Below are positions 13,818 through 23,398 of a stretch of 64,000 nt of DNA, piece by piece. How positions within the stretch are numbered: position 1 is the first letter of the stretch; each line of letters begins with the position of its first letter. The translations under genes were made by a program, and so were the position numbers. The notes beneath the pieces were generated by a model. It had not been told where the DNA came from, searched no databases, and saw only the letters and a list, made by a program, of their open reading frames with translations. This DNA is from an uncultured Ectothiorhodospiraceae bacterium (GTDB lineage: Bacteria; Pseudomonadota; Gammaproteobacteria; XJ16; Halofilaceae): positions 4,364 to 68,363 of the forward strand of contig CAYZHJ010000003.1 in NCBI GenBank assembly GCA_964478305.1. Direction: 5' to 3'.

Positions 13818-15527
13818 TCAATCGCTGTCGGTGATCGCGCCGAGCGAGGCGGGGGCGACCAGCTTCGCATACTTGGCGAGCACGCCGCGCCGGTATTTCG
13901 GCTTCGGCGGGGTCCATTCCTTCAGGCGCCGCCGCAGTTCCTTCTGCGTGATCTCCAGCTTGATCTCGTCGGCCTCGGCATCGATCGTGATCGTGTCGCC
14001 ATTCTGCACCACCGCGATCGGCCCGCCGACCGCGGCCTCGGGCGTGATGTGCCCGACCACGAAGCCGTGGCTGCCGCCGGAGAAGCGGCCGTCGGTGATC
14101 AACGCCACGTCGTTGCCCAGTCCGCGGCCCATGATGGCAGAGGTGGGCGACAGCATCTCGCGCATGCCGGGACCACCGACCGGGCCCTCGTCACGGATGA
14201 CCACGACATCGCCCGCCTTCACCTTGCCGTCGAGGATGCCGCGCAGGGCCTTCTCCTCGGAGCGGTACACCTTCGCCCGGCCGGAGAATCGCGTGCCCTC
14301 CTTGCCGGTGATCTTGGCGACCGCGCCGTCGGGCGCGAGATTGCCGTACAGGATGCGCAGGTGGCTGTCCTTCTTGAAGGCACGGTGGAAGGGCATGACG
14401 ATCTCCTGGCCCTTCGGGTAGGGTTTCACGCCCCGCAGGTTCTGCTTCAGTGTCTTTCCCGTCACCGTCAGGCAGTCGCCGTGCAGCAGGCCGCGGTCGA
14501 GCAGCATCTTCATCAGCGGGGCGATGCCGCCGATGCGGATGAGGTCGGACATCATGAAGCGCCCGCTCGGTCGCAGGTCGCCGAGCACGGGAACCTTGCG
14601 CCCGATGCGCGTGAAGTCGTCGATCTTCAGCTTCACGCCGGCGGCGTGTGCCATCGCCAGCAGGTGCAGCACCGCGTTGGTCGATCCACCCAGCGCGATG
14701 ACCACGGTGATGGCGTTCTCGAACGCCTTCTTCGTCATGATGTCGCGCGGGCGGATGTCGTTGGCGAGCAGATCGAGCACGGCGGCGCCGGCGCGCTCGC
14801 ACTCGGCCGCCTTGTCGTCGGCGATCGCTGCCCGTGCCGAGCTCTCCGGCAGGCTCATGCCGAGCGCCTCGATCGCCGAGGCCATGGTGTTGGCGGTGTA
14901 CATGCCCCCGCACGAGCCCGCGCCGGGGATGGCGCATTTCTCGACGGCGAGGCGCTCGTCGGCGCTGATCTGGCCCTTGGCCTCCTGGCCCACCGACTCG
15001 AACACGGAGACGATGTCGACGTCGCGGTCCTTGTAGCAGCCCGGCATGATGGTGCCGCCGTAGACGAACAGCCCCGGCCGGTTCAGGCGCGCCAGGCCGA
15101 TCAGGCAGCCGGGCATGTTCTTGTCGCAGCCGCCGATCGCGACCAGCCCGTCGAAGCCCTCGCAGCCCGCGACCGTCTCGATCGAGTCGGCGATGACCTC
15201 GCGCGAGACCAGCGAGTATTTCATGCCCTCGGTGCCCATCGAGATGCCGTCGGACACCGAGATGGTGTTGAACAGCACGCCCTTGCCGCCGGCATCGTCG
15301 GCACCGGCCACCGCCTCGTCGGCGAGCCGATTGATGTGCATGTTGCAGGGGGTCATCATGCCCCAGGTCGAGGCGACGCCGATCTGCGGCTTGGCGAAGT
15401 CGTCCTCGGAAAAGCCCACCGCGCGCAGCATGGCGCGGCTGGCGGCGCGCTCCGGGCCGTCGACCACGCGCGCCGAGTGGGCGCGGGTATCGACCTTCGG
15501 TTTTCGGGATCCGGTCTTCTGGGACAT
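13818..15527 (-). CDS. ilvD: Dihydroxy-acid dehydratase
   Basis: 'TPCNMH', 'GGCDKNMPG', '[10 protein letters not shown]', 'GPGMREML', 'LITDGRFSG'. Confidence 0.97.
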
Positions 15528-15636
15528 GGTTGCGGTGCTCCTGAAGGGGCGACAGAGTGGCGGCAGGCGCCCAAGAATAGCAAACCGCCGACGGTAGTTG
15601 CGGACCGGGTCGACGCGAGCGCCCGCCCGGGAGGAC

Positions 15637-16398
15637 ATGGCAACGATGCTGCAGCCCTGGTTCTATCCATTGCCGCTGGCCTTGCTGGTCATCCTGATCG
15701 GAACCCTCCTGCTGTGGAAGCAACGCCGCATCGCCGGGGTCGCCCTGGTCGGCATGGCCGTCGCCGGCCTGTACCTGCTGTCCACGCCCGCGATCTCGGA
15801 TGCACTGGCCGGGTCGCTGGAACGGCAGTACGGTCCCGTCGCGGTCGATGAACTGCCGCGCACGGATGCCATCGTCGTGCTCGGCGGCGGCGTGCAGCCG
15901 CCGGCACGGCCGCGCAAGGACGCCGATCTCGGTCATGCGGCCGACCGGGTCTGGCACGGCGCGGCGGCATACCGCGCCGGCAGGGCGCCGCTGGTCATCG
16001 TCACCGGTGCCCGGCCCTATGTCGATCGCGGCGAGAGCGCCGCCGAGGCGACCCGGGGCCTGCTGCTGCGACTCGGCGTGCCCGAATCCGCGCTGGCGGT
16101 CCGCGGCGACTCGACCTCGACCCGCGAGGATGCGCTGACGGTGCGCGAGGCCATGGAGCAGCGACGGCTCGAGGACGTGCTGCTGGTGACCTCGGCCCTG
16201 CACATGCCGCGTGCGGTGGCGACCTTCCGGGCGGCCGGGATCCGCGTGTGGCCGGCCGCGACCGACCACGAGGTCGTCGCGCCGGCGCGCCGGGGCATGT
16301 GGGCCTGGCTGCCGTATCACCGGGCGTTCGCCCGCAGCAACCGGGTCTGGCACGAGTATGCCGGCATGCTCTATTACCGCCTGCGCGGCTGGGTCTGA
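15637..16398 (+). CDS. YdcF/ElyC family (DUF218) membrane protein
   Basis: Two N-terminal TM helices; 'AIVVLGGG', 'STSTREDA', '[12 protein letters not shown]', '[13 protein letters not shown]'. Confidence 0.88.
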
Positions 16399-16478
16399 GC
16401 CGCGTTTTCACGCCTTCTGTGCCGGTCCGCTATACTGGACCCGGGCACGCACCGGCCGCGAGACGCGGAACGGGGCAC

Positions 16479-16769
16479 ATGACCAAGAGCGAGATGATCT
16501 CGCGCCTGGCGGCGCGGATGGGCATCACCAAGGCCGAGGCGAAGCGGCTGCTGGAGGCCCAGATCGAGGCGATCAGCCATCATCTGGCGATCGGCGACAC
16601 CGTGGTGCTCCGCGGCCTGGGTACCTTCTCCACGCGCGAAACGTCGCCCCGCCGGGGGCATCGGCCCACCGACGGAGAAACCCTCGAGATTCCGGCACGC
16701 CGGCAGGTCACGTTCCGTCCCAGCGAGGGGCTGCGTGACGCGGTGCAGTCGCGGGAGCCGCCGGCATGA
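16479..16769 (+). CDS. HU/IHF family DNA-binding protein
   Basis: 'MTKSEMISRLA...GDTVVLRGLGTFSTRE...IPARRQVTFRPSEGLRDAV'. Confidence 0.92.
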   Translation: MTKSEMISRLAARMGITKAEAKRLLEAQIEAISHHLAIGDTVVLRGLGTFSTRETSPRRGHRPTDGETLEIPARRQVTFRPSEGLRDAVQSREPPA

Positions 16770-18853
16770 GCCGCCGCCTGTTTCCCGGCCGGCTTGCCGA
16801 CGAGATGGCCGGCGACGATCATCCGCGCGCCGAACGGCTGAAACGGCTCGCGCGCGAACTGGTCGGCGTCGTGCGCGAGGGCCTGATCCGCGACGGTCAG
16901 GTGCGGATCCACGGTTTCGGCACCTTCCGCCTGCGTCCGACCCGCGCCCGCAAGGGCATCAATCCGCGCACCGGCGAACCCATCGACATTCCGGCCCGCT
17001 ACCGGGTCCTGTTCCGTCCGGCGAAGGCCTTGCGGGAGCGAATCGAGCCCGGCGCGGCGCCGGCGGTACCGCTGGCCGAGCCGCATGCCTCGCGCGAGGC
17101 GGTGCTCGGGGGCGTCATGAGCGAGGCCCCGACGGCCGGCGCGGTGCCTGCATCGGACGAAGCCGGCCAGCGACGCGGCTACTTTCCGGATCGCATCGCC
17201 GCCGCCGCCATCAGTGACACGGTGGTGCGGACGACCGGGGAGCCACCGGCCGCCGCTTCCGGTTCGCGCGAGGCCAATCTCGGCGGCACGATGGGCGACA
17301 GTCCGAGCGCCGGCCGGATACCGCCGGTTTCCCCCGTCACCGCCGACGAGTCCCGTCCCGCCATCGACGCCGACGCAGGCGCGACCGCGGCCAACGAGGA
17401 GCACGAGCGCGGCTCGCGCGAAGCCACCCTGGGCGGCCCCGGCGCGGCATCCACGCGCGGCGCCGGTACCCTGCCTGCCGAGGATCTGCCGCCGGAGGCA
17501 CAGGAACCGGACCGGCCCGCGACCGTGCCCGCCACCCGACACGGCCCCGGCCCCCTCGAGTCGGCGCCGGGCGAAGCCGGGCTCGCACTGCCGGGGAGCG
17601 CCTCGCGCGAGGCGGGCCTGTCGGGTGCAGCGACCGCGCCTCCGGCCGGCGGTCTGCCGGACGATGAGGAAGATGCCGGCGATGGGGCTGCCGGCTTCGA
17701 GGCAGGCACACCCGTCCACGAACGCAGGGGGGTCGCTGCCCGGGGGGAAGTCGAATCGGGGGACGGCGGCGAATTTCGCGAGTCGGGCCCGGCCGACGAG
17801 GGCGCCGCCACGGTGACGTCCCGACCGTTCCGGCGGCGGATCGTGATCGAGGATGAACCCGGCCCGGACGTGCCGTCCGAACCCGGACAGGACGAGGCGC
17901 GTACCGATCGCTCCCGCCGGTCGTTGCTCCTGCTGCTGCTGCTCGTACTGCTGATCGCGGCACTGGCGTGGTGGTTCTGGCCCCGCGCCGAAACGCCGCC
18001 GGTCACGCAAACGAGCGACACGGGTGCCGTCGAGGAAACCGAACCGGCCGCTGCGTCGACGGCCCCCGATGCAGGAGACGGCAGCGCGAGCGGAACAGCG
18101 GCCAGCGGGGAAACGACGCCGACGAGTCCGGCCGCGGAGGACACCGCAACCGCCGCCGATGACACGCAAACGGCGACCGTCGACGAGCCGGCGGGCGCCG
18201 GCACGGAGCGGACGGGCACGAGCAGCCGCGATTCCGCCGAGCCCGCGGGGCAGGATGAGGCCATGACGACGGCTGGCGGCGAGGCGGCCGCCCCGGTCCC
18301 CGAGGAGCCCGCTTCCCGGTCCGGGCCGGAGACGGAGGCGATGGCCGGAGAAGAACCCGGGACGGTCGCCGCGCAGGCCCGGGAGGCGCCGGCGGCAGCC
18401 GGGGCCGGCTCTGCCGAAGCCGCGGGAACCGACAAGCCCTGGTTCAGCGGCCACAACTACTCGGTACAGCGAGGCGATACGCTGTGGGGCCTGTCGGACG
18501 ATCACTACGTCAATCCGTACTACTGGCCGCACATCTGGAATCACAACCAGGCAGTGTCCGATCCCGACCGGATCGAGATCGATCAGCAGTTGTGGCTGCC
18601 CACCCTGCAGGGTGAACCGCGGTCGCTGACCGCCGCCGATCGCCGCAGCATTGCCGAGGGCTATCTGCGACTGTATCGCCTGTGGACGGAGACCGGCGCC
18701 GCCAATCCACAGTACGCTCTGGTCGGCGTACGCTACTTCGACCCCGAGGTCATGCCGCCGGAGCTCCGCAACGATCCGTCGGCGGGGCGGCCGGACGACA
18801 CGCTGGCGGCTGCGTTCGAGGCCCACTTGCAGGCCGCGTTCCCGCGCCGGTAG
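16766..18853 (+). CDS. HU domain - low-complexity linker - TM helix - linker - LysM fusion protein
   Basis: N-terminal 'GQVRIHGFGTFRLRPTRARKGINPRTGEPIDIPARYRVLFRPAKALRERI'; hydrophobic helix at about 17921-17980; LysM 'YSVQRGDTLWGLSDDHYVNPYYWPHIWNHN...PDRIEIDQQLWLP'. Confidence 0.88.
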   Translation: MSRRLFPGRLADEMAGDDHPRAERLKRLARELVGVVREGLIRDGQVRIHGFGTFRLRPTRARKGINPRTGEPIDIPARYRVLFRPAKALRERIEPGAAPAVPLAEPHASREAVLGGVMSEAPTAGAVPASDEAGQRRGYFPDRIAAAAISDTVVRTTGEPPAAASGSREANLGGTMGDSPSAGRIPPVSPVTADESRPAIDADAGATAANEEHERGSREATLGGPGAASTRGAGTLPAEDLPPEAQEPDRPATVPATRHGPGPLESAPGEAGLALPGSASREAGLSGAATAPPAGGLPDDEEDAGDGAAGFEAGTPVHERRGVAARGEVESGDGGEFRESGPADEGAATVTSRPFRRRIVIEDEPGPDVPSEPGQDEARTDRSRRSLLLLLLLVLLIAALAWWFWPRAETPPVTQTSDTGAVEETEPAAASTAPDAGDGSASGTAASGETTPTSPAAEDTATAADDTQTATVDEPAGAGTERTGTSSRDSAEPAGQDEAMTTAGGEAAAPVPEEPASRSGPETEAMAGEEPGTVAAQAREAPAAAGAGSAEAAGTDKPWFSGHNYSVQRGDTLWGLSDDHYVNPYYWPHIWNHNQAVSDPDRIEIDQQLWLPTLQGEPRSLTAADRRSIAEGYLRLYRLWTETGAANPQYALVGVRYFDPEVMPPELRNDPSAGRPDDTLAAAFEAHLQAAFPRR

Positions 18854-18927
18854 ATCCTGTACGGCGATTCCGGGTTGGCGCATCTCTGGTAGCATCGCGG
18901 GGCCCGAGTCGGCCCCGCGGTACCGCG

Positions 18928-20313
18928 ATGGATTCCGATCACCTGATTGCCGAACTGCCGTATCACGCGGACAGTGCCGTGCCGTTCGAGTCCGTGGTCG
19001 ACGAGCCCTGGAGCATGCTGCTCGACAGCGGTGCCGGCGGCGTGGTGCGGGGGCGCTACGACATCATCGTTGCCGATCCCTGTGTCACGCTGTCGACCGA
19101 GGGTGGACGAACCGTGATCGACCGTCGCGGCGAGGCGGAAACCTCGGAGGCCGATCCGTTCGTCCTGCTTCGCGATGAACTGGGTCCGCACCGGCCGACG
19201 CCGGCCGGCATGCCGTTCGCCGGCGGGGCGCTCGGCTACTTCGCCTATGATCTGGCGCGGCGTCTGGAGACACTGCCGGTCCTGGCCGCCGATGCCGAGC
19301 ATCTGCCCGAGATGGCGGTCGGGATCTACGACTGGGCGCTGGTGATCGACCACGATGCCCGCCGCAGCCGGCTCGTCGGGGCGGGGCGTGACGAACGCAC
19401 GCGGGCGCGCTGGGACGAACTCCGCGAGCGTTTCTCGGACGCGGTGGAATCCCCGGAGCGCGTGCCTTTCCGGGTCACGGGCACGGCCGAGGCCAACCTC
19501 GATGCCGGCGGCTACACCGCGGCCTTCGAACGCATCCAGCAGTACCTGCACGCGGGCGACTGCTACCAGGTCAACCTGGCCCAGCGTTTCGCGGTTCCGG
19601 TCACCGGTGACTTGTGGTCGGCCTACCGGCGCCTGCGCGCGATCAACCCGGCGCCGTTCGGAGCGTATCTGCACACGCCGCGCGGGCAGGTGCTCTCGGT
19701 TTCGCCCGAGCGTTTCCTGCGGGTCGGCCCGGATGGCCGGGTCGAGACCCGGCCGATCAAGGGTACGCGCCCGCGCGCGACCGACCCCGACGCCGACCGG
19801 GCACTGGCGCAATCGCTCGCCGCCAGCGAGAAGGACCGTGCCGAGAACGTGATGATCGTCGACCTGTTGCGCAACGACCTGGGCCACGTCTGTCGGCCCG
19901 GCAGCGTGCGCGTGCCGAGCCTGTTCGAGGTCGAGAGCTTCCCCACCGTGCATCACCTGGTGAGCACCGTGACCGGACGGCTGGCACAGGGTCGCCACGC
20001 GCTGGATCTGCTGCGGGCCGCCTTCCCCGGCGGCTCGATCACGGGTGCGCCCAAGATCCGCGCCATGGAGATCATCGAGGAACTGGAACCCCATCGGCGG
20101 GGCGTCTACTGTGGCGCCATCGGCTATGTGGGGTTCGACGGCGGCATGGACACCAGCATCGCCATCCGCACACTGGTGCATTCGAACGGGGTGGCCCGTT
20201 TCTGGGCCGGCGGCGGCGTGGTGATCGATTCCGGCGCCGAATCGGAGTACCAGGAGACCTTCGACAAGGCAGCGGCCATGCTTTCCCTGCTGCGAGAGAC
20301 GGCTGCCGACTGA
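18928..20313 (+). CDS. pabB: Aminodeoxychorismate synthase component I
   Basis: 'MLLDSG', 'GDCYQVNLAQRF', 'SPERFL', 'PIKGTRPR', 'KDRAENVMIVDLLRNDLG', 'FPGGSITGAPK'. Confidence 0.95.
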   Translation: MDSDHLIAELPYHADSAVPFESVVDEPWSMLLDSGAGGVVRGRYDIIVADPCVTLSTEGGRTVIDRRGEAETSEADPFVLLRDELGPHRPTPAGMPFAGGALGYFAYDLARRLETLPVLAADAEHLPEMAVGIYDWALVIDHDARRSRLVGAGRDERTRARWDELRERFSDAVESPERVPFRVTGTAEANLDAGGYTAAFERIQQYLHAGDCYQVNLAQRFAVPVTGDLWSAYRRLRAINPAPFGAYLHTPRGQVLSVSPERFLRVGPDGRVETRPIKGTRPRATDPDADRALAQSLAASEKDRAENVMIVDLLRNDLGHVCRPGSVRVPSLFEVESFPTVHHLVSTVTGRLAQGRHALDLLRAAFPGGSITGAPKIRAMEIIEELEPHRRGVYCGAIGYVGFDGGMDTSIAIRTLVHSNGVARFWAGGGVVIDSGAESEYQETFDKAAAMLSLLRETAAD

Positions 20314-20445
20314 ACCGGAATGCAGTTGGTATACTGGTATGGACGGTAGTGCGGCTGACACCGTCCTTGCACGGATCCGGTTCACGGATACTCGTGTCCG
20401 CGATCGTTTCGTCACCGCGAGCGAACGGGATGAGGGAGGTCGGTC

Positions 20446-20799
20446 ATGCAGGAGCGACGCGACATTCATCGGCGTCATCTGATGTTTCATCTGCGAGTAT
20501 ACGATGCCGATTCGGGACGCGAGCTCGGCACTCTGACCGATGTGTCACCGGAGGGATTGCTGGTTACCGGCGATCGGCGGCTGACACTCGGCCGCCGGTT
20601 CCGCATGTTCATGCGGCTGCCACCGGCCCTGACCGCGCGCGAGCGCATCGATTTCAGCGCAACCGTTGCGTGGTCGAACAACCAGGCCAACCCGGCATTT
20701 CACGATACCGGGTTTCGTGATCTCGAGCTGGATGGCGAAGACCGCGGAATACTGGAATCCCTCATGGACGAGTTCGATCTGCGCGAGGCGGGGAACTAG
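20446..20799 (+). CDS. Stand-alone PilZ-domain protein
   Basis: RxxxR ('RRDIHR') and DxSxxG ('DVSPEG') motifs; RBS GGAGG. Confidence 0.85.
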   Translation: MQERRDIHRRHLMFHLRVYDADSGRELGTLTDVSPEGLLVTGDRRLTLGRRFRMFMRLPPALTARERIDFSATVAWSNNQANPAFHDTGFRDLELDGEDRGILESLMDEFDLREAGN

Positions 20800-20951
20800 G
20801 GAAGGTCTGAACAAGGGCCATCCCGGGCCTTGATCAGACGCGGGCCATGAAAATGCGATTTCCATGGCCCTTCATTTTCAGTGGCTTGCAGCCACTGAAA
20901 ATGGCGGCACATCCATGTACCGCAGGAACCTCTGATCAATTCAGGGGTTCC
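20800..20951. mobile_element. About 152 bp MITE with IS5-like ends and stacked internal hairpins
   Basis: Starts GGAAGGTCTGAACAAG right after CTAG and ends TTCAGGGGTTCC; includes a perfect 14-bp stem at 20873-20903. Confidence 0.65.
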
Positions 20952-20993
20952 CCGGGCGCAAGTCGCTTCCGGTTCGGTTTCCGGGGGATCACG

Positions 20994-21362
20994 ATGAACG
21001 ATGAAGATCGGCGTCTGGCGGAACGGCGTTCCAGGAATCGTTATCAACTCCAGTTCAATCTGGAACTGGTCGATGTCCGCAACGGCGAGTCGCTCGGTTA
21101 TCTCGTCGACATTTCCGGCGAGGGTCTGATGCTGGCCTCGGAACGAGCGTACAAGGTCGAGGGCCGCTACCGCATGCGGATACCCCTGCCGATCGAGTAC
21201 GACGGCTACGAGGCACTGGAGATCGAGGCCACCGCCGCATGGACCAAGCCGGCCATGAATCCCGCCTTCCACCGCACCGGCTTCCGCGAGTTGCAGCTCG
21301 TCTCCGGCCCCCACGGCGCCCTCGACCGGCTGATCGGGGACTACCATCTACAGACCGTCTGA
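20994..21362 (+). CDS. Stand-alone PilZ-domain protein (paralog of 20446-20799)
   Basis: 'ERRSRNR' and 'DISGEG' motifs; shares 'NPAFHxTGFR' with the upstream copy. Confidence 0.85.
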   Translation: MNDEDRRLAERRSRNRYQLQFNLELVDVRNGESLGYLVDISGEGLMLASERAYKVEGRYRMRIPLPIEYDGYEALEIEATAAWTKPAMNPAFHRTGFRELQLVSGPHGALDRLIGDYHLQTV

Positions 21363-21385
21363 TGGATCCTGATGGGCCGTGCGTC

Positions 21386-23398
21386 CTAGAGACCCAGCAG
21401 GGCTCGCAGGTTCTCCATCTGCTCCCGGCCGGTGGTGCGGCGGGATTCGGGGTCGGTCGGGGCCCGGGTGCCCTCCCAGACGATGTCCCCTTCGGGGAGT
21501 TCCTCAAGGAACCGGCTGGGCTCGCACTCGAGTTCCTCGCCCCAGCGGTAGCGTTTCTCGGCAAAGGTCAGGGCCAGGCTGCGCCGGGCACGGGTGATGC
21601 CGACATAGGCCAGCCGCCGCTCTTCCTCCAGCCGATCCTCGGCCAGACTCGCCCGGTGGGGCAGGATTTCCTCTTCCATGCCGGCCATGAACACGTGCGG
21701 GAACTCCAGGCCCTTGGCCGCGTGCAGGGTCATCAGCGCCACGCAGTCGCCGGCCTCGTCATCGTCGTTGCGGTCGAGCATGTCCACCAGCGCGAGCCGG
21801 GCGACGATCGCCGGCAGGTCGCGCTCCTCGCCGTCGCTGTCGGTGGCCATGCGCCCGATCCAGTCGAGCAGTTCCTCGACGTTGTTCCAGCGCTTGTCGG
21901 CACTGCGCGGATCGGCCGAGATGTCGTCGAGCCAATTGCGGTAGCCGATGTCGTCGATCAGCTCGCGGCAGACCGCGACCGGATCGCCGCGGCGGGCGTT
22001 GTCGCCCATGCCCGTGATCCACTCGCCGAACCGGCGCAGCCGGGTCAGGGGCGTGCCCTCGATGTGGCTCGCCAGTCCCACCTCGAAGCTCGCGGTCAGC
22101 ATCGATATGCCGCGGTTGCGCGCGTAGTGGCCGAGTTTCTCCAGCGTGGCCGCGCCGATCTGCCGTCGCGGCGTGTTGATTACGCGCAGGAAGGCGGTGT
22201 CGTCGTCCGGATTGCACAGCAGTCGGCAGTAGGCCAGCACGTCCTTGATCTCGGCGCGGTCGAAGAACGAGGCCGAGCCGCTGACGCGATAGGGCACGTT
22301 GCGTTCGCGCAGCGCGCGCTCGAACGGCTTCGCCTGGAAATTTCCGCGATAGAGGATGGCGAAATCGCTCCAGCGCAGGCCGTGGCGCAGGCGTTTCGAC
22401 AGGATCTCGGAGGCGATGCGGTCGGCCTCGTCGTCGGCGCTCGGGCAGGCGATCAGGCGCACCGGATCACCCGTGCCCAGCTCGCTCCAGAGGCGTTTCT
22501 CGAACAAGTGCGGGTTGTGCGCGATCAGGTGATTGGCGACACGCAGGATGCGCGCGCTGGAGCGGTAGTTCTGTTCCAGCTTGATCACGCGCAGGTCGGG
22601 ATAATCCTGCTCGAGTCGTGCCAGGTTCTCCGGCCGCGCGCCGCGCCAGGCATAGACCGACTGGTCGTCATCGCCGACCGCCGTCAGTCCGCCGGATACG
22701 CCCACGAGCTGCCGCACCAGCTCGTACTGGGCGTTGTTGGTATCCTGGTATTCGTCGACCAGCAGGTGCCGCACCCGGTTGTCCCACTTCTCCCGGACGT
22801 CGGGATGTTCCGCCAGCAGCCGCAGCGGGGCGATGATGAGGTCGTCGAAATCGACCGCGTTGTAGGCGTGCAGGAGCTGCTCGTAACGGGCATAGACCGC
22901 GGCCGCGCGCGCCTCGTTCTCGTCCGCGGCGACCGTTGCTGCATGCGCGGGGGTGACGAAGTCGTTCTTCCAGCGGCTGATGACCGCGCGCAATGCCTCC
23001 TCTTCGCCGAGATTGCTTCCGGATTCGCCCCGCACCAGCTCCTTGATCGCCGTCAGACTGTCGGTCGCGTCCATGATGGTGAAGCCGCGCCGGTATCCCA
23101 GCGCGTGGCCGTCGCTGCGCAGGATCTGCAGGCCCAGCGTGTGAAAGGTCGATACGGTCAGGCCCCGCGACTCGTCGGCGGCCAGCGTGGCGGCGGCCCG
23201 CTGCTTCATCTCGCGCGCCGCCTTGTTGGTAAAGGTCACCGCGAATACGCCGCGCGCCGGGATGCCTGCCTCGCGCACCAGCCAGGCGATCTTGCGCGTG
23301 ATCACGCGCGTCTTGCCGCTGCCGGCACCGGCCAGCACCAGCAGGGGCGAGCCGAGGTGACGCACGGCGGCGCGCTGTTCCGGGTTGAGATCGGCCAT
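21386..23398 (-). CDS. rep: ATP-dependent DNA helicase Rep (UvrD/Rep family)
   Basis: 'LAGAGSGKTRVITRKIAWL', 'VDEYQDTN', 'LEQNYRSS', 'EERRLAYVGITRA'; Rep-type C-terminus 'EPSRFLEELP'. Confidence 0.9.
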   Translation of the reverse strand: MADLNPEQRAAVRHLGSPLLVLAGAGSGKTRVITRKIAWLVREAGIPARGVFAVTFTNKAAREMKQRAAATLAADESRGLTVSTFHTLGLQILRSDGHALGYRRGFTIMDATDSLTAIKELVRGESGSNLGEEEALRAVISRWKNDFVTPAHAATVAADENEARAAAVYARYEQLLHAYNAVDFDDLIIAPLRLLAEHPDVREKWDNRVRHLLVDEYQDTNNAQYELVRQLVGVSGGLTAVGDDDQSVYAWRGARPENLARLEQDYPDLRVIKLEQNYRSSARILRVANHLIAHNPHLFEKRLWSELGTGDPVRLIACPSADDEADRIASEILSKRLRHGLRWSDFAILYRGNFQAKPFERALRERNVPYRVSGSASFFDRAEIKDVLAYCRLLCNPDDDTAFLRVINTPRRQIGAATLEKLGHYARNRGISMLTASFEVGLASHIEGTPLTRLRRFGEWITGMGDNARRGDPVAVCRELIDDIGYRNWLDDISADPRSADKRWNNVEELLDWIGRMATDSDGEERDLPAIVARLALVDMLDRNDDDEAGDCVALMTLHAAKGLEFPHVFMAGMEEEILPHRASLAEDRLEEERRLAYVGITRARRSLALTFAEKRYRWGEELECEPSRFLEELPEGDIVWEGTRAPTDPESRRTTGREQMENLRALLGL

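Follow-up and report, generated by a model that had tools for sequence, protein, structure and literature searches.

The attachment of bacterial chromosomes to the cell envelope is an old question. In the portions of Burroughs et al. (2017; PMC5499826) drawn on here, bacterial HU-CCDC81 proteins are described in which a single HU domain is joined to a transmembrane (TM) helix and a LysM domain and whose gene forms a two-gene operon together with one for a stand-alone HU; nucleoid tethering was proposed as their role. They occur mainly in bacteroidetes and sporadically in proteobacteria, with gamma-proteobacteria among the phyletic codes of a figure legend. The anchored domain of HU-CCDC81 is short and charge-poor, with a clade mean of 2.8 basic residues compared with 8.1 for classical HU (a mean to which eukaryotic and two-domain forms may contribute most), and its stand-alone partner is predicted to be the classical, DNA-competent subunit. 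Here we describe a gene pair at positions 16479 to 18853 of a 64,000-nucleotide stretch of DNA (the window; contig CAYZHJ010000003.1 of assembly GCA_964478305.1) from an uncultured Ectothiorhodospiraceae bacterium, which codes for a small HU-family protein and a large membrane-anchored HU-LysM protein. Judged against those portions of the paper, the architecture, the two-gene operon, and the idea of a nucleoid tether are already published, and some of these fusion proteins may already be in its lists; what differs here is the reversed polarity of the two HU proteins.

In the sections of PMC8789113 considered here, HubP of Vibrio cholerae links chromosome, membrane, and wall indirectly, via ParA1. 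Like HubP/FimV, the large HU protein is gammaproteobacterial and single-pass, with a LysM predicted to lie in the periplasm and an extended acidic region on the cytoplasmic side; HubP differs in that it acts through ParA1 and has no DNA-binding domain. No FimV model (core/N-terminal domain, C-terminal TPR) matched the large protein, and genome G000 has a separate FimV, on C61. Noc and RacA-DivIVA of Bacillus are named as parallels in the same portions of PMC5499826. Like these and RodZ, the large protein brings a DNA-binding-type domain to the cell envelope. Noc and RacA are not known to have a TM helix or a wall-binding domain, and the helix-turn-helix of RodZ binds MreB rather than DNA. The initial annotation had stated that such fusions were noted bioinformatically, mainly in Bacteroidetes, which agrees with Burroughs et al. 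once sporadic proteobacteria are added; its further statement, that no characterised gammaproteobacterial example was known, stands only in part, as sporadic proteobacterial HU-CCDC81 forms are in print and HubP is characterised but indirect. Our literature search found only Burroughs et al. for HU-CCDC81 and no experimental study of an HU-TM-LysM fusion, subscription papers being mostly outside its reach, which is not proof of absence.

Comparison of the anchored and soluble HU proteins

16479..16769, + strand: small soluble HU-family partner, 96 residues (PF00216, E 9e-27)
16766..18853, + strand: 695-residue single-pass protein with the order HU, linker, TM helix, linker, LysM, helical domain
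16766..17050, + strand: anchored HU domain, residues 1-95, with basic clasp, GINPRTGE arm, and K87 (equivalent to HU K83)

The stop of the small HU gene and the start of the large gene share the letters ATGA, an overlap of 4 nucleotides, and the open reading frames at 16479-16769 and 16766-18853 bear out the annotation of a 96-residue HU gene coupled in this way to a 695-residue gene. Both proteins matched PF00216 above its cut-off, the large one at residues 11-93 (E 8e-20), and the fold model of the anchored domain likewise has the features of the HU/IHF superfamily (bihelical stalk, β-sheet with an extended hairpin, and C-terminal helix, along with the GxG turn); in an NCBIfam scan neither protein reached a curated HU or IHF equivalog cut-off, the best sub-threshold match of both HU domains being IHF-alpha. 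The N-terminal HU domain had been annotated as complete, with intact GFGTF and GINPRTGE, and both motifs were found in it, together with a full-length clasp containing 10 Lys or Arg (K/R) in 33 residues. Its model (predicted local distance difference test, pLDDT, 85) has the full HU fold with the complete order of elements, and a short, atypical helix 1 of only 7 residues without the usual MNK start; its closest solved relatives were IHF/HU (E 4e-20). The small protein is a PF00216 member, as annotated, but a non-canonical one, in which the helical dimerisation body is kept, the arm tip reads HRPTDG, and K83 is replaced by Glu.

Roles in HU have been assigned to the arm prolines and to K3, K18, and K83 (PMC12569673, in the parts consulted). 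We compared the two proteins across 24 pairs, made up of ten genome loci and 14 of 24 metagenome loci (10 near-duplicates were dropped). All 24 anchored HUs and none of the small ones had the arm-tip motif [NH]Px[TS]G, K83 was present in 23 anchored and 3 small HUs, and identity within the arm tip was 72% among anchored compared with 28% among small HUs; for helix 1 the corresponding values were 32% and 46%. K3 was kept by 9 and K18 by 11 of the small HUs. The clasp was full length in the anchored HU of every pair, and 10-14 arm residues were missing from four small partners (L064, L066, L068, and L084). Over the ten genome pairs the 33-residue clasp contained on average 8.5 K/R in anchored and 6.5 in small HUs, compared with 8.3 in the three housekeeping proteins of G000. 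The length of 33 residues, as in housekeeping HU/IHF, held for every one of 41 Halofilum-type and nearer fusion proteins, and the anchored clasp averaged 8.9 K/R over 41 near relatives and 7.0 over all 267. The small partner mostly retains the classical length and N-terminus, and its tip RPxDG is locally conserved in Halofilum-type loci. We concluded from these alignments that the anchored HU has conserved the DNA-binding signature (full arm, NPxTG tip, K83), whereas in the small HU it has decayed or been deleted. The continued retention of partners without an arm points to a dimerisation role for the small HU.

Set beside bacterial HU-CCDC81, as presented in the portions of PMC5499826 named above, the pair agrees in domain order (HU, then a disordered segment, TM helix, and LysM, where that clade has LysM or SPOR), in having a stand-alone HU in a two-gene operon (10 of 10 genome and 24 of 24 metagenome loci), in predicted topology, and in the heterodimer and nucleoid-envelope tether proposed; its spread is comparable, here over Balneolaceae, KSB1, and Gammaproteobacteria. 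In contrast, the anchored clasp is full length at 33 residues and not truncated at the tip of the β-hairpin, it contains 10 K/R compared with the paper's 2.8, the partner is not classical (of 24 partners, none has a canonical tip, 3 have K83, and 4 have the arm deleted), and an extra conserved helical domain follows LysM. The HU-CCDC81 models PF18174 and PF18175 matched none of 7 near anchored domains at E ≤ 1, and none of 56 wider relatives reached the cut-off, 5 matching weakly; one precomputed PF18175 mark was seen among 120 listed Balneolaceae-type proteins. Because truncation, charge loss, classical partner, and Pfam models all fail, we did not file the pair as HU-CCDC81: in a comparison that took in no Bacteroidales HU-CCDC81 sequences, its polarity is, by sequence, the reverse, with the anchored HU full length and basic and the soluble partner decayed. 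Common descent with HU-CCDC81 is plausible. The arm deletion in L064, L066, L068, and L084 is a truncation as in HU-CCDC81, yet on the soluble subunit.

Like HU-alpha/beta and IHF-alpha/beta, the pair comprises two different subunits, with the fold and arm motif on the anchored one; unlike these heterodimers, it has a membrane anchor and LysM fused to one subunit and just one canonical arm, and it forms subfamilies apart from the host's own HU/IHF. In an unrooted tree of 128 rows and 105 columns, with several long rows, one branch separated all 84 anchored domains (98/93) from the rest and another all 24 small partners (100/98), and 20 housekeeping or other HU/IHF proteins stood apart from both. 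Within the reach of 105 columns and several long rows, the tree rules out a recent duplication of host HU or IHF. Gammaproteobacterial-type anchored HUs lay among Balneolota/KSB1-type ones with mixed support in this unrooted tree, to which no approximately unbiased (AU) test was applied, and we claim no donor. Divergent stand-alone HU-family genes were seen at L103 (G012), L108 (G065), and L109 (G208), two of them with an insertion before the first strand; no HU-HU tandem fusion was found among 301 stored proteins.

Membrane helix, linkers, and LysM module

17051..17920, + strand: predicted cytoplasmic low-complexity linker, 290 residues, with SREAxL(G)G repeats (composition)
17921..17977, + strand: single TM helix, residues 386-404, predicted N-in/C-out (KD19 2.75)
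17978..18442, + strand: predicted periplasmic acidic Ala/Thr/Glu/Pro linker, about 155 residues (composition)
18458..18601, + strand: LysM domain, residues 565-612, with GDTLW motif (PF01476; fold matches are LysM domains)
18608..18850, + strand: helical C-terminal domain, conserved and outside any named family, co-occurring with LysM (invariant alignment residues)

The domain order annotated for the large protein was confirmed by Pfam, by the hydrophobic segment at 386-404, and by the models. That segment, the only hydrophobic one in the protein, is a plain Leu-rich helix with RSRR just before it, in keeping with the single TM helix after basic residues that had been described. Among the 267 relatives, K/R residues before the helix outnumbered those after it in 240, equalled them in 24, and were fewer in 3, an excess that predicts HU inside and LysM outside, the orientation for which a topology check had been suggested. 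Both linkers are acidic (net −23) with few hydrophobic residues, and their lengths across the relatives range from 13 to 379 residues (cytoplasmic) and from 24 to 271 (periplasmic). The second, annotated as an acidic linker of about 150 residues, came to about 154; the first has the length and low complexity of the disordered linker of about 290 residues that had been annotated, but it is not featureless, since it contains four SREAxL(G)G repeats at residues 109, 167, 217, and 280 (window 17090-17690), each followed by a looser P-x-A-G. The repeat occurred 73 times among 49 nearer proteins, each of which has between 0 and 6 copies, and not at all in 236 more distant proteins; it could possibly be a docking motif. 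A weak NCBIfam RodZ match of the large protein (E 0.02) spans only the TM helix and low-complexity linker.

For the C-terminal part, Pfam (LysM at 565-612, E 3e-05, above cut-off) and a model of pLDDT 89, in which LysM is packed against four helices, agreed with the description of a LysM domain followed by a short helical domain; the LysM fold and the GDTL motif of peptidoglycan-binding LysM were recovered by Pfam, alignment, model, and fold search. The helical domain, searched together with LysM and not alone, gave no clear fold match. The LysM and helical module is N-terminal in four outer-membrane β-barrel proteins, three of which have a signal-peptide-like start, indicating that the module can work outside the cytoplasm. 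These barrel fusions (P0029, P0039, P0040, and P0042, and probably L060:555-3674) include forms of about 1000 residues with three barrel regions and represent an unusual candidate outer-membrane-to-wall anchor. One relative, P0127, has the LysM and helical module twice.

Occurrence and setting of the gene pair

The HU-linker-TM-linker-LysM-helical architecture was found in 267 of 301 stored proteins over 200 residues, many of them close kin, from Halofilum, other Gammaproteobacteria, Balneolaceae, and KSB1. Among 41 proteins matching the LysM and C-terminal module, 35 had an N-terminal HU, 2 were N-terminally incomplete, and 4 were the barrel fusions; the nearest named relatives come from Halofilum. 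Contigs of two other studies, counted without those of X1, which may be the source sample, cross the gene junction and HU-TM-LysM with only substitutions and in-frame 3-nucleotide insertions; three single-base indels occurred in the shallower X2 contigs. A frameshift or chimera is ruled out by the 35 of 41 relatives and the in-frame contigs of other studies, and the annotation's concern that the fusion might be a sequencing artefact is thereby settled.

Searched with a profile, 50%-identity representatives yielded 157 matches at E ≤ 1e-30; among the best 150 there were 129 new proteins, 112 of them HU-TM-LysM with the C-terminal domain and 4 more close variants. A second profile gave 239 proteins, 120 of which were listed, and the named ones among those listed were mostly Balneolaceae (Fodinibius, Aliifodinibius, Rhodohalobacter, and Halalkalibaculum). 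Named carriers of the fusion are Halofilum ochraceum, Fodinibius spp., and Rhodohalobacter sp., and look-alike clusters in the Atlas came from Balneolota, Pseudomonadota, and Bacteroidota. In a class sample of 400 genomes the full fusion occurred in 4 outside the genus (three families), and is thus sporadic in the class, and the LysM part alone matched in 7 further genomes; in a phylum-wide sample none of 400 other genomes matched a 62-residue single-sequence query, which is too insensitive for absence. We found no relatives in viral contigs, and plasmid records gave LysM-only or HU-only matches and no full-length relative. As GC content and third-position GC (GC3) of the pair are also similar to those of neighbouring genes, we rejected a phage or plasmid origin.

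The small HU gene was directly upstream of the large gene in 10 of 10 genome loci, with an overlap of 4 nucleotides in nine and 8 in the tenth; 25 of 32 metagenome loci show the anchored HU, and all 24 of these with upstream DNA had the small HU. The co-occurrence that was to be checked therefore holds throughout both sets. The genes flanking the pair differ among the four host families examined, so that only the pair is conserved. Both HU genes were found in 7 of 13 congener genomes; G005 and G008, in neither of which pabB was found, were left out of presence and absence. In G010 (L027:7390-7500) the large reading frame is split merely by a run of N, an assembly gap, in the periplasmic linker, and in G003 the large gene is split over two contigs.

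16407..16436, + strand: predicted sigma-70-type promoter for the pair, TTCACG-18-TATACT (sequence pattern)

This was the sole promoter-like site in 15400-19100 (shuffle mean 0.2), 43 nucleotides upstream of the pair, and of 8 aligned loci 7 had a −10 box (TATACT, TATAAT, or TACACT) about 40-50 nucleotides ahead of the start of the small HU gene. An Rfam scan of 14000-22000 gave no match, and one metatranscriptome gave a single 188-nucleotide contig over 18570-18757, without strand or silent control and too weak to use. Just upstream of the pair, in a variable slot, lies an ElyC/DUF218 envelope-biogenesis-like gene (15643-16398); we rejected it as part of the system, as it occurred in just 2 of 8 congener loci with the pair or its remnant (G000 and G004), a count in which the upstream side of the G003 locus was not covered. 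In some congeners, as at L025:8378-9787 (G011), the pair is followed directly by an MltF-like lytic transglycosylase gene (SBP_bac_3 and SLT), which is absent in G000; a similar reading frame is at L029:1824-3233 (G001). Two tandem small PilZ-like genes, one of which passes the Pfam cut-off, lie between pabB and a rep-like helicase gene in the window (20446-21362) and are seen in most congener loci.

Possible roles of the pair

From the coupling of the two genes, the domain order, and the asymmetry of conservation, all of which are observed, we infer dimerisation, DNA binding, and wall binding, and propose an asymmetric HU heterodimer that ties DNA via the inner-membrane helix to peptidoglycan, with a probability of about 0.55. 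Translational coupling would give roughly 1:1 amounts of the two HU proteins, and the small HU would complete the dimer, HU being an obligate dimer (PMC5499826, in the portions named above), so that the anchored subunit would need neither a second anchored copy nor housekeeping HU. Contact with the minor groove would be made mainly by the arm of the anchored subunit and would probably not be strictly sequence-specific; LysM with the helical domain would bind the wall in the periplasm, and the long flexible linkers would make the connection a slack leash instead of a rigid clamp. The outcome would be an accessory nucleoid-positioning or nucleoid-spreading tether alongside ParAB and FimV/HubP. 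The annotation's reading of a heterodimer and tether thus fits the coupling, the dedicated HU subfamilies, the positive-inside topology, and the intact anchored clasp, but its concept was already in print (PMC5499826, same portions). A broader statement is more tentative, and we would place it a little short of even odds: that a single membrane-spanning chain and a dedicated one-armed HU partner tether the chromosome directly to the cell wall and form a distinct subfamily of more than 100 50%-identity clusters in Balneolota, KSB1, and Gammaproteobacteria.

Several observations weigh against the proposed tether. The four arm-less partners form one clade in the tree and thus count as one event; among the relatives, the clasp is less basic in distant ones (mean 6.4-6.8 K/R), strict NPxTG is found in just 149 of 267, and the arm is lost from a few anchored members (P0142, P0191). 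Pro63, present in all 24 anchored HUs, is also kept by 22 of the 24 small ones, together with basic residues, and most small partners may therefore still touch DNA. The top fold matches of LysM were Kbp and contractile-injection baseplate proteins (Z about 5.5), which are not known to bind the wall; because fold searches rank these first, with modest Z, peptidoglycan binding by the LysM and C-terminal module is presumed from knowledge of the family. In G006, G007, and G012 (99, 93, and 91% complete) ilvD adjoins pabB without the pair, and G001 (100% complete) keeps about 65 C-terminal codons of the large gene; with the pair absent or a remnant there in four congeners, it is dispensable and accessory. 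All 5 tested congeners had FimV and 4 of them had ParB, with or without the pair, the ParB miss being G000 itself, which is 92% complete. Dispensability in close relatives argues against a core segregation role, segregation being one of the functions originally suggested. The remnant in G001 (L029:1518-1751) is pseudogene-like and lies between ilvD and the MltF-like gene.

The strongest alternative, though one we consider unlikely, is a membrane-bound or membrane-released regulator, in which the HU heterodimer acts at specific sites like IHF and LysM senses the state of the wall, either while anchored, in the style of ToxR/CadC, or after regulated proteolysis that frees the cytoplasmic part. 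The single-pass N-in topology with long disordered linkers resembles that of envelope sensors, the altered but locally conserved RPxDG tip of the partner could give specificity, both HU domains match IHF-alpha best below threshold, and dispensability fits a regulator; yet the genes next to the pair in the four host families include no conserved protease, sigma factor, or target gene, linkers that vary so widely in length (13-379 and 24-271 residues) would be poor for rigid signal transfer, the TM segment is a plain Leu-rich helix, and the partner's arm can be deleted. Less probable again is a landmark or scaffold, in which the HU dimer is repurposed for protein binding and the link to the chromosome is indirect, like HubP/FimV or the two-domain HU-CCDC81 proposal. 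Periplasmic LysM, one TM helix, and a long acidic cytoplasmic region mirror HubP (PMC8789113, as consulted), protein binding was proposed for truncated HU domains and two-domain HU-CCDC81 (PMC5499826, as consulted), and the short repeats of the cytoplasmic linker could dock partners; however, DNA-contact features remain at the level of housekeeping proteins in the anchored HU, the repeats do not occur outside the Halofilum-type clade (0 of 236 other proteins), and the genomes already have FimV. We regard as most doubtful a variant with DNA binding at the membrane in which the outer module is joined to a different envelope protein or to the outer membrane instead of peptidoglycan, or in which the DNA is incoming or extrachromosomal, as suggested by solved folds near LysM that include Kbp, the injection baseplate, and a type IV pilus machine chain, by a helical domain without known family, and by a patchy distribution across phyla suggestive of gene flow, but disfavoured by the retained GDTLW motif and Pfam LysM score, by reuse of the module on outer-membrane barrels in parallel with OmpA-type wall anchors, by the lack of viral-contig relatives or full-length plasmid matches in our searches, and by flanks that hold no uptake or secretion genes.

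If the DNA-to-peptidoglycan tether by an asymmetric HU heterodimer is true, the pair would provide a physical link among DNA, membrane, and peptidoglycan that needs neither ParA nor transertion; the documented gammaproteobacterial link, through HubP, is indirect, whereas an intact DNA clasp inside and LysM outside would make a direct one. Asymmetry of this kind, with a single working arm in the dimer, would also be new for HU. The prediction of 2017, in the portions of that paper drawn on here, was based on domains for which a loss of DNA binding was assumed, and the signature kept on the anchored chain makes the hypothesis easier to test. Natural congeners with and without the pair exist, and the two-gene cassette is small enough for expression in E. 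coli.

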